Made by a program: the position numbers and the translations under genes
Virus record (IMG/VR): IMGVR_UViG_2713896813_000005
Reading direction: 5' to 3' (one strand)
DNA from: an uncultured virus (IMG/VR IMGVR_UViG_2713896813_000005)
Taxonomy: Duplodnaviria; Heunggongvirae; Uroviricota; Caudoviricetes
Length of the DNA: 64,000 nt
Shown: piece after piece, positions 17,771 through 19,970 of the stretch
How the letters are laid out: each line of letters begins with the position of its first letter
Numbering within the stretch: the stretch's first letter is position 1
The notes under the pieces: model-generated
Database searches by the model: none
Told to the model about the DNA's origin: nothing
The model's input: only the letters and a program-made list of their open reading frames with translations

Positions 17771-17835
17771 AAGCTTCGCCCCATCGGGCGGGGATATCGC
17801 CAGTGTTTAAATGGAGAGCCGGATGCGCTGAAAGG

Positions 17836-19970
17836 GTACGCCGTGAAAGCGGTGAATTGAATACCTGCTGCAAGCAGGAGGCGTCGGAAGAAACACTTCT
17901 GGGTCATCAGCCTTACCGGATGGTGAAAACCTTAAGGGACATGAGCATGGCTGAGAAGCGTGGAACCGGCGAACATACCAGACCGGTTGTCTCGCAAGAC
18001 CCGCGCAATAAGGTTAAAGCCGCATTGCCTGAACCCAAGACACCAGTGATGGAACGCGCACATCCACAGCCACGGTATGTAAGGGCTGTGTTGGCAGGAC
18101 AGGTTGGTACAACTTTCGCCAGCCGAAATCTTCCTCTGCCAAACGACGGTCAGCGAGATCGTTCAAGGTGTCGAAATGGGAACCTACGTTGTGCCAGTAC
18201 GTTCAATTCATACGAACACGGGATCACCTGTGGGCCGCGAGGCCTATGGTAACGGAGTGATCGTAGTAGTCAGCGATGGGGAAAGCCCATTACATGGCGA
18301 AGGATCACAGGTGTCTGACGACTTGATATTAAGGAAACCGAAATGGCAACAGCCGAAAATATACTGGCCGTCTATTCCGATCGTGGCAGGAGGCAACTGC
18401 CTCTGGAGGGAGTCTACCGGCAGCTTTATCGGGCGGACCTCTACCTGCGTGCTTATGGAAAACTCTACCGTAATTCAGGGGCTATGACCCCGGGAAGTAA
18501 CAATGAAACAGTGGACGCCATGTCGCTGGAGAAAATCGACGTAATGCGTCGGGAAGCCTGGCGCTGGACTCCAACAAGAAGGACGTATCTTCCTAAAAAG
18601 AAAGGGAAACGTCCTCCTGGATTACCAGCATGGTCAGATAAGCAGGTTCAGGAAGCTGGAAGCTTACTATGAACCGCGATTCAGTGCACTGTCTTTTGGC
18701 TTTCGTCCCGGTCGTGGCTGCCATTCCGCGTTACGGGAGATTACGCATAAGTGGCGGGGTGTAAAATGGTTTATTGAAGGGGACATCAAAAGATGTTTTG
18801 ATAACATTGACCACGATGTATTGCTACCAATCCTTCGCGAATCCATTCATGACAACCGATTGATACACCTCGTGTCCAGTATGCTCCGCGCCGGATATTT
18901 TGAAGACTGGCAATATAACAAAACCCTCAGCGGAACCCCGCAGGGTGGAGTGTGCAGCCCGTTACTCAGTAATATCTGTCTGGATAAACTGGATCGCTTT
19001 GTAGAGGATGTTTTGCTTCCGAAATATAATCAGGGTGAACGTCGCAGAAATTATCCGCCTTATAAGGCGCTACTTAATGCCTCAAGACATGCCGGGGACA
19101 AGGGTGAGTATCAACGGGCCAAAATGTTGTGCCTACAGGCACAACATATGCCGTCTCGTGACCCTGAAGATCCGGATTTCAGGAGGCTGTGGTATGTCAG
19201 GTATGCGGATGATTTTCTTTTGGGTTTCAGCGGCCCCAGACATGAGGCTGAAGAAATAAAGTAGGCAATTCGTCCGTTTTTGCATGATACGTTGAAACTG
19301 GAGATGTCTACGGAAAAGACGTTGATTACACATGCCCGCACTGAAGCTGCACGTTTTCTTGGTTATGAAGTAGTCACACTTGACGCTATGACCAAGCAGG
19401 ACCACCGGGGACAACGCTGTATCAATGGTGTAGTACGTCTGAAAATTCCGGTAGAGGTAATCAGGCAGCAATGCCAGAAATATATGCGGAATGGGAAACC
19501 TTCCCATCGGCCCGAACGCTTGTATCATGATGACTATAGCATAGTTGCACAATATCAGGCTGAGTACAGGGGATTTGTCCAGTATTACCTGATGGGATTT
19601 AATGCCCATCGTTTGTGGAATGTTCATCGAGTCATGCGAAAATCCTTATTGGGAACGCTGGCGAACAAACACAGAACAACGGTAAGCCGCCTCGTCAGAA
19701 GCCTGAAAACCGAGGTTACGGTTGGTGATAAGACTATCAAGGCATTACAGATAGTCCGGCACAAAGGGCAAGGAAAAAGACCGCTGGTCGCTACATTTGG
19801 CGGTTTGTCTCTGGCATGGCAGAAAGATACAGTGATCTCCGATAACCCGAAGCAGATATTTAACGGGGTTCGCAGCGAACTGATATCCAGGCTACTGGCT
19901 CAGACCTGTGAATGCTGTGGGACAAATGATGGCCCTTTCGAAGTGCATCATATCCGCAAACTGAGCGATC
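17836..19970 (+). mobile_element. Degenerate group IIA intron (5' end, DI-DIV and IEP; own DV/DVI lost)
   Basis: 5' GTACG; DI closing pair GTGAATTGAA/TTCAATTCAT; EBS1 hairpin 18102-18124; J2/3 CGGAG; canonical DIII; RT-maturase ORF. Confidence 0.85.
18343..19970 (+). pseudogene. Group II intron RT/maturase/HNH protein (LtrA-like), fragmented
   Basis: GAMTPG, GFRPGRGCH, WFIEGDI, GTPQGG, YVRYADD, CECC..EVHHIRKL; frameshift/deletion near 18670, in-frame TAG at 19262-19264, cut at 19971. Confidence 0.9.

Follow-up and report, generated by a model that had tools for sequence, protein, structure and literature searches.

A decayed LtrA-like group II intron in domain V of another group II intron, and relatives at the same position

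Group II introns that take other group II introns as homing sites have been described in several settings. The class-B-like introns B.th.I3, M.a.I5, UA.I3, and P.l.I2 insert into the YADD motif of the reverse transcriptase (RT) of other introns (Tourasse and Kolsto 2008, PMC2504315), and in Thermosynechococcus elongatus the intron TeI3 (F3), which has no open reading frame (ORF), inserts at the start of the RT ORFs of TeI4 (F1) (Mohr, Ghanem, and Lambowitz 2010, PMC2882425). Insertion into domain V (DV) is known from the psbF twintron of the Euglena gracilis chloroplast (Copertino and Hallick 1991, as described in PMC8393795), and Methanosarcina acetivorans contains nested arrays attributed to repeated site-specific homing into introns, a "perpetual homing site" (Zimmerly and Semper 2015, PMC4424553). 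The element compared with these systems here is an intron relic at positions 17836-19980 of a 64,000-nucleotide (nt) stretch (the window) of an uncultured virus of the Caudoviricetes (IMG/VR record IMGVR_UViG_2713896813_000005). This inner intron lies in the DV of a second, nearly erased outer intron, and very probably belongs to a lineage that homes into the DV of other group II introns.

The YADD-homing introns resemble the DV-inserted ones in having a conserved homing site inside other introns, in forming twintrons in distant hosts, and in the high conservation of their target. They are directed, however, to the RYADD codons of the domain IV RT ORF and are without an endonuclease, whereas the present introns occupy the DV hairpin and encode an LtrA-like RT with an HNH domain; by target and by HNH domain, then, the window's element falls outside the YADD-homing lineage. 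In Thermosynechococcus, as here, ORF-less derivatives sit at one conserved intron site, and identical inner copies in diverged outer introns were read there as recent independent insertions; the differences are that DV is the target here and that the outer introns are of several kinds. The outer psbF intron needs prior removal of the inner one, as would the outer introns described below, but psbF stands alone as one fixed organellar example whose introns are degenerate and ORF-less, whereas the present insertions are bacterial, recurrent at one DV position, and apparently mobile. The Methanosarcina arrays resemble the triple nesting of two metagenome loci (L120 and L132); those introns home, according to the review, into related intron sequences and ORFs, and it does not name DV as a target (PMC4424553).

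Ll.LtrB, whose protein LtrA is represented by PDB entry 5g2x, has the same RT, maturase, and HNH domain set, and the proteins align over their full length; it differs in homing into a relaxase gene, and its IIA-type delta-delta' contact found no support in the DV-inserted loci that were tabulated. The literature searched describes no bacterial lineage with DV as its homing site; an earlier mention of DV insertions may exist in Dai and Zimmerly (2002), in Simon et al. (2008), or in Copertino and Hallick (1991). Intron-homing introns are already known, and a bacterial DV-homing lineage is a variant of them that is new as far as the literature was searched.

The relic and the intron that it interrupts

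The window copy is a mutated group II intron and a dead, 3′-truncated relic; inner and outer introns are both nonfunctional there. The relevant features, with exon-binding site abbreviated to EBS, are:

17797-17835, plus strand: outer-intron remnant of 39 nt, comprising the end of the RT ORF (..GTTTAA), the DV 5′ arm GAGCCGGATGCGCT, the GAAA loop, and GG
17836-19980, plus strand: inner group II intron, mitochondrial-like (ML)/LtrA-like, of which the 5′ 2,145 nt remain from a full length of about 2,400 nt, with DV and domain VI (DVI) missing
18057-18065, plus strand: EBS2 segment CGCACATCC; covariation with DV positions 11-12 is seen at its first two bases, which precede CACAT
18102-18124, plus strand: EBS1 hairpin, with stem GGTTGG/CCAGCC and 11-nt loop TACAACTTTCG; EBS1 is ACTTTCG (18112-18118)
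18226-18305, plus strand: domain II/III region of the inner intron, matching RF01998 (group-II-D1D4-1) at 26.6 bits against a gathering score of 35
18343-19978, plus strand: broken RT/maturase/HNH gene, in open pieces 18343-18672, 18545-19261, and 19265-19978

The original prediction, made from the letters alone, took the string GGAGAGCCGGATGCGCTGAAAGG (17813-17835), directly upstream of GTACG, for the 5′ arm and GAAA loop of a DV belonging to an intron that was otherwise almost erased. Both points are borne out. The 39 nt that are left (17797-17835) are 97.4% identical to positions 4110-4148 of an E. coli intron (L002) whose host gene is a transposase of an insertion sequence (IS) of the IS3 family, and positions 4127-4213 of that intron match RF00029 (DV-DVI) above the gathering score, at 64 bits. 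The uninterrupted E. coli DV reads GAGCCGGATGCGCTGAAAGG^TGCATGTCCGGTTC, where ^ marks the insertion point. Set against it, the window has the left portion of a DV, which breaks off 2 nt past the GAAA loop; the E. coli intron represents the empty site.

The inner intron is 95.3% identical to a Salmonella plasmid copy (L001), with the homology stopping at 19980, and 93.3% identical over 2,171 aligned positions to an intact 2,400-nt copy (L130). Its 5′ end (17836-17840) is GTACG instead of GTGCG and so departs, as GUACG in the RNA, from the GUGYG consensus; all 49 metagenome copies and the introns of Microvirga lotononidis (L004), Serratia (L005), and Priestia (L059) begin with GUGCG, and one Microvirga ossetica intron (L003) begins with GCGCG. 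The RT gene has a frameshift between its first two open pieces, an in-frame stop at 19262-19264, and no C-terminus; its fragments match RVT_1, Intron_maturas2, and an AI2M-like HNH domain, so that RT and maturase regions are both recognizable, and intact 596-aa homologues are encoded by L001 and L130. The copy is considered dead because of this 5′ end, the frameshift and stop, and the IS21-like element that removed its 3′ end.

Truncation at 19980 leaves the copy without a DV bearing the AGC triad and without a DVI bearing a bulged A, and neither the inner DV nor the 3′ arm of the outer DV was found anywhere in the 64,000 nt of the window. At gathering scores no group II family of Rfam was detected in the intron region, and at E up to 10 RF01998 was the sole match; positions 18262-18303 are 95-98% identical to outer-type introns of E. 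coli and Salmonella. In the homologues L001, L004, L006, L081, L082, and L130, RF00029 matches exceed the gathering score.

An intact twintron is present in a 94.8-kb metagenome contig (L130). Its inner RT is an uninterrupted 596-aa protein (RVT_1, maturase, and HNH), and the inner intron lies within the DV of an intact outer intron with a 411-aa RT (RVT_1 and GIIM; D1D4-2). The host of the outer intron is a transposase gene of the IS66 family.

Recurrence of the insertion in different outer introns

Tabulation of the flanks of homologues, proposed with the original prediction, gave the expected outcome: it shows DV 5′ arms upstream and DV 3′ arms with DVI downstream. The downstream arrangement is found in L001, L007, L081, L082, L004, L006, L059, and the metagenome loci in which the 3′ end was found. 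Both outer flanks, complementary to each other as in a twintron, are present in L004, L130, L059, and many metagenome loci; the window keeps the 5′ flank only.

Salmonella plasmids carry inner-intron fragments that are 92-95% identical to the window copy, 5′-truncated, and with the 3′ end kept. In three of these (L001, L081, and L082) and in contig L007 the inner 3′ end is followed by NNCACGNNCGGTTC and DVI. The sequence following the inner DV-DVI (located by RF00029 matches) is TACACGTCCGGTTC in L001, TGCACGTCCGGTTC in L081, CGCACGTCCGGTTC in L007, and TGCACGCACGGTTC in L082, with DVI and then the exon next in each. The DVI of L082 is unlike those of the other three, and RF02012 (D1D4-7) is matched upstream of it, which indicates an outer intron of another kind. 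L007 is a 1,301-bp contig of a Martelella alba assembly that holds the 3′ part of an inner intron together with the 3′ arm of the outer DV, DVI, and an exon resembling IS3; its inner intron is 95% identical at the protein level to the Salmonella plasmid copy, and such an enterobacterial-type sequence in an alphaproteobacterial assembly suggests contamination or recent transfer. On a Klebsiella plasmid (L083, 2501-3035) the last 300 nt of the inner RT gene are cut at DV and joined to isrN small RNA (sRNA) sequence (Rfam, 104 bits).

More distant BLAST searches with the 5′ 507 nt of the intron gave three plasmid copies, from Microvirga lotononidis, Microvirga ossetica, and Serratia proteamaculans; near and distant searches of E. 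coli genomes and of plasmids gave no full-length close copy, the E. coli matches being confined to short stretches common to the outer-type intron. The M. lotononidis locus (L004) reads GAGCCGGATGCGGTCAAAGC, GTGCG ... CTCCAC, TGCACGTCCGGTTC, DVI, and the 3′ half of a tRNA, with a tRNA-Met gene just upstream. About 30 nt of the outer intron are recognizable 5′ of the inner copy. On this plasmid (L004, 3377-3500 and 5900-5998) the 5′ side of the outer intron amounts to a few dozen bases after the complete tRNA-Met gene, and downstream the exon consists of the 3′ half of a second tRNA, with T arm and CCA; the outer element may have been an intron in a tRNA gene that later underwent deletion. At two other places on the same plasmid (L088 and L089) a different intron occupies a non-DV site. 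In M. ossetica (L003/L006) the order is GAGCCGTATGACGCGAGAGT, GCGCG ..., GTCACGTACTGTTC, DVI, and an exon read as an IS6-type transposase, with RF01999 (D1D4-2) upstream. Although 93% identical, the inner introns of the two Microvirga species occupy the DVs of different outer introns in different contexts, and they are independent insertions.

The S. proteamaculans intron (L005) is 66% identical and lies outside any DV, at ..GTGCCAACGG, GTGCG; the loop at its EBS1 position, CCGUUGG, is a 7/7 complement of its exon. This intron (L005, 3440-3502) and those of Albidovulum (L045 and L046) appear as sister introns at ..CCAACGG, ..CAACGG, or ..GAATGG in a conserved plasmid gene, which we take to be DUF932-like.

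A 24-nt motif from intron positions 4-27, which leaves the flank unconstrained, identified 49 metagenome loci. These were counted together with the window, L003, and L004, and 51 loci had at least 20 nt upstream. A regular expression for a DV 5′ arm that ends 2 nt after a GNRA-like loop matched 47 of the 51, with 26 distinct arms. The remaining four comprise one degenerate sequence (L096), two DV-like but altered ones (L111 and L138), and one that is DV-like by eye with 20 nt upstream (L118). A complete 3′ end was found in 23 metagenome loci: 19 are ORF-less forms of 641-746 nt (about 655 nt), two are nested (L120 and L132), with one mini-intron within another within an outer intron, one is 1,833 nt long, and one is the full-length L130. 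L098 and L134 also appear to be full length, their matches being partial, and L094 is inserted in the DV of its own lineage. When the two arms are joined, most loci with both ends give a canonical 14-bp DV hairpin with a 2-nt bulge. Types seen among the outer introns include RF01999 (D1D4-2), RF02005 (D1D4-6), and RF02012 (D1D4-7).

A 40-nt degenerate domain I (DI) motif had no match in species-representative genomes, and among viral contigs the inner-DV motif had none and the 5′ motif matched only the window's own element (L091). An RT-based scan recovered L007, a Priestia endophytica intron (L059), and many relatives of about 50% identity, in Dehalococcoidia and other phyla, that lie in protein genes and not in DVs. 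L059 sits in a DV, as GAGCCGTATGAGTTGAAAGG, GTGCG ..., CTCACGTACGGTTC and DVI. In Dehalococcoidia, related introns (L023 at 3236, 5900, and 8564; L022 at 3299) follow one another head to tail without an intervening exon: ..CCTATCCTAC, at the 3′ end of one, abuts GTGCG, and three 5′ ends are 2,664 nt apart. This could be a tandem array or the result of homing onto the end of a sister copy.

The best PDB match of the inner RT is LtrA (5g2x; E 1.6e-110, residues 23-585 to 25-594), against 2.2e-29 for the T.el4h RT; LtrA is thus by far the best match and spans the full length, in agreement with the LtrA-like label of the original prediction. Pfam separates the two proteins, the inner RT having Intron_maturas2 and an AI2M-like HNH domain and the outer RT having GIIM. 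A mitochondrial-like RT with a DNA-binding/endonuclease (D/En) HNH region places the intron in the ML class on these PDB and Pfam matches, the tree described next having no named class representatives. Among RNA features that bear on subgroup IIA, the RF01998 (D1D4-1) match of the window stays at 26.6 bits against its gathering score of 35. In a quick maximum-likelihood tree of 48 RTs, dereplicated by shared 5-mers, the five full-length DV-inserted copies form one clade with a Shimodaira-Hasegawa-like approximate likelihood ratio test (SH-aLRT) value of 100; the clade including Priestia L059, whose DV insertion was recognized after the tree was run, has a support of 95, and the Serratia/Albidovulum type is placed elsewhere.

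Targeting elements, mechanism, and competing explanations

The stem of the EBS1 hairpin is 98.3% paired, with compensatory changes at 3 of 6 pairs among 20 distinct sequences and a covariation score reached by none of 500 shuffles; the loop of this DI hairpin is complementary to the end of the 5′ exon. The EBS1 first proposed, ACUUUC (ACTTTC, 18112-18117) pairing 5/6 with GAAAGG, was counted correctly, and its placement is upheld by the covarying hairpin and by relatives. In L130, EBS1 (ACUUUCG) matches its exon CGAGAGU at 7/7 positions; the window's EBS1 is identical, but its site, UGAAAGG, gives a G.A mismatch at -1. Pairing between EBS1 and the intron-binding site (IBS1) extends to 189 of 252 positions in 36 loci, random expectation being about 37.5%. 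Position -4 pairs in 36/36 loci, -6 and -3 in 34/36 each, -5 in 32/36, -2 in 25/36, and -7 in 20/36.

For EBS2, the pairing of CACAUCC (18059-18065) with GGATGCG at 6/7 positions was likewise correctly counted in the original prediction, whose register was probably too short and would extend to 18057-18058. These two bases are CG in the window and GU, CU, AG, or GG elsewhere, and they are combined with DV positions 11-12 as CG/CG 14 times, GU/AC 6 times, and CU/AG and AG/CU once each. Over all 34 loci, 53 of 68 positions are paired, against a shuffle mean of 32 and with none of 10,000 shuffles as high. This two-base covariation places EBS2 within 18057-18065; its exact register is ambiguous because the CACA repeat allows slippage.

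Taken together, the 5′ arms, the 3′ junctions, and the diversity of outer introns support the idea, already put forward in the original prediction, of an intron lineage that homes into the DV of other introns, and we regard it as very probable that the window copy is a dead member of such an ML-class, LtrA-like, HNH-bearing lineage. In the mechanism that we propose from these comparisons, excised intron RNA with its bound RT would recognize a DNA copy of DV by base pairing: the CUUUC core of EBS1 (18113-18117) would pair with the tetraloop and the next base, and the EBS2 segment (18057-18065) with ..AUGNN.. of the DV 5′ strand. Reverse splicing of the RNA would follow, in sense orientation, at a point 2 nt downstream of the tetraloop, and a DNA copy would then be made, probably with cleavage of the other strand by the HNH domain as the source of the primer. 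The product would be a twintron whose outer ribozyme could re-form its DV only once the inner intron had been spliced out. The sequences themselves show where the insertion lies, that it recurs in many different outer introns, where the EBS1 hairpin is, the class of the RT, and the decay of the window copy; retrohoming, sequential splicing, and current activity of the lineage are inferred.

Several observations weigh against this interpretation. No mobility or splicing has been observed. The 3′ junction is lost from the window copy, which by itself cannot document it, and a search of 5,426 complete E. coli genomes and 72,556 plasmids gave intact copies only from the Microvirga plasmids. Exon position -1 is paired in 12/36 loci, about as expected by chance, and the EBS1/IBS1 total of 189/252 is no better than with shuffled partners (mean 185; 1,464 of 10,000 as high), which reflects conservation on both sides (CUUUC facing GNRAG) and not covariation. 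Within the intron, seven 6-mers are complementary to GAAAGG at 5/6 or more positions and two 7-mers to GGATGCG at 6/7 or more, so that the EBS matches of the window by themselves do not exceed chance. The EBS2 covariation is weak when each combination is counted once: 14/26 positions pair against 10.2 in shuffles, and 730 of 10,000 shuffles are as high. The IIA-type delta-delta' contact (loop position 4 with +1) is present in 2 of the 11 loci tabulated by eye. The flanking DV arms are mismatched in L094, L109, L115, and L129, which suggests either recombination between copies that shuffles outer halves or assembly chimeras across the 655-nt repeat; a single record series supplied 35 of the 49 metagenome loci, and a 655-nt repeat is prone to chimeric assembly.

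The same distribution might in principle have arisen from a single ancient twintron, spread as a composite by the mobility of the outer intron or by horizontal transfer, with no homing specific to DV. Mobility of a composite twintron is discussed for Thermosynechococcus (PMC2882425), and the enterobacterial loci (the window, L001, L007, and L081) have one outer type and very similar DVIs, so that these could represent one event. As an account of the whole set it is most improbable, given the 26 distinct DV 5′ arms, at least 15 different downstream DVI sequences, outer introns from at least three Rfam D1-D4 families, the 93%-identical inner copies in unrelated outer introns, and the near-identical 655-nt ORF-less copies in many different DVs. 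Harder still to credit is a reading in which the upstream DV-like string resembles a DV by chance or belongs to the inner element, either as an extension at its 5′ end or through circular permutation. Group II introns that are circularly permuted, and so have DV-DVI ahead of DI, do exist (PMC8637638), but here half a DV stands upstream, with its matching half and a separate DVI downstream of the inner intron's own DV-DVI; the upstream arms vary by locus while the inner intron is nearly constant, and the window's 39 nt match the 3′ region of a separate E. coli intron at 97% identity. The 3′ junctions rule out both permutation and chance.

Targeting at the RNA level differs from retrohoming in its substrate: the inner intron would reverse-splice into outer-intron RNA with an exposed DV loop and be fixed by reverse transcription and recombination. 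The insertion point does adjoin a tetraloop that is exposed in the RNA, at the tip of a highly stable hairpin. Outer introns also undergo reverse transcription when they move, which offers a route to fixation, and the present results do not separate this route from DNA retrohoming. Some copies, however, lie in 5′-truncated outer remnants (39 nt in the window, about 30 nt in L004) that are unlikely to be transcribed and remobilized as introns, but the truncation could equally well have followed the insertion. The RT, moreover, carries an HNH endonuclease domain, and in LtrA-type introns HNH serves target-primed reverse transcription at DNA. We consider RNA-level targeting unlikely and homing into DNA copies of DV the preferred explanation.

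The wider interpretation, which we hold to be likely, is that this hitherto undescribed LtrA-like lineage is a hyperparasite of introns, with autonomous members of 2.4 kb and ORF-less derivatives of about 655 nt. Its homing site would be the DV hairpin shared by all group II introns; it would invade several structural classes, in Proteobacteria, Bacillota, and soil communities, and disable the invaded intron unless spliced out first, and sub-lineages would retune the two bases of EBS2 to the upper helices of different DVs. Group II introns are usually thought to survive in harmless sites. If the hyperparasite interpretation is correct, a target is available wherever any group II intron lives, the harm falls only on another selfish element, and splicing of the host intron depends on that of its invader. 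This would bear on the control of intron populations, on why many bacterial introns are dead, and on the origin of organellar nested introns. The authors of PMC4028801 and PMC8919778 both state that their programs drop nested introns, and the lineage would explain some of the twintrons skipped by annotation pipelines. It would also provide a case from nature in which an LtrA-type intron is directed at a short structured DNA motif and its ORF-less derivatives are presumably mobilized in trans.

Genomic surroundings of the relic

The relic interrupts no phage gene. It lies in a region rich in IS elements, with a P4-like satellite on one side and prophage genes on the other. Its immediate neighbors are:

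15685-17638, minus strand: IS21-family (IS100-like) insertion sequence of 1,954 bp, the left neighbor of the relic
17641-17797, plus strand: mobile-element debris belonging to neither intron, 91% identical to L084 2442-2599 (Salmonella plasmids)
19981-22343, minus strand: IS21-like element that removes the 3′ end of the intron; its right limit is provisional

The left element has 28-nt inverted repeats at 15685-15712 and 17611-17638 and ORFs at 16530-17552 (rve and helix-turn-helix) and 15751-16533 (IstB_IS21, E 7.7e-112). The debris beside it and the L084 sequence diverge after ...GGGATAT. ORFs of the right element lie at 20048-20803 (IstB_IS21, E 8.8e-63) and 20982-22343.

Positions 1-10455 of the window are 84% identical to satellite phage P4; in this part, at 6742-6982, C4 antisense RNA, its a1/b1 targets, and isrK all score above the Rfam gathering thresholds. 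A 1,171-aa ORF (11535-15050) has superfamily-1 helicase domains (AAA_11 and AAA_12) and a C-terminal PLD-like nuclease domain; it directly follows the P4-like alpha/primase region, the expected place for a satellite cargo gene, and is possibly a defense gene. To the right of the relic, positions 22356-23811 encode lambda-P-like and DnaT-like replication proteins, and tail and portal genes occupy 28-52 kb. An STnc100 sRNA match (74 bits) lies on the minus strand at 53508-53726, in the prophage part of the window.

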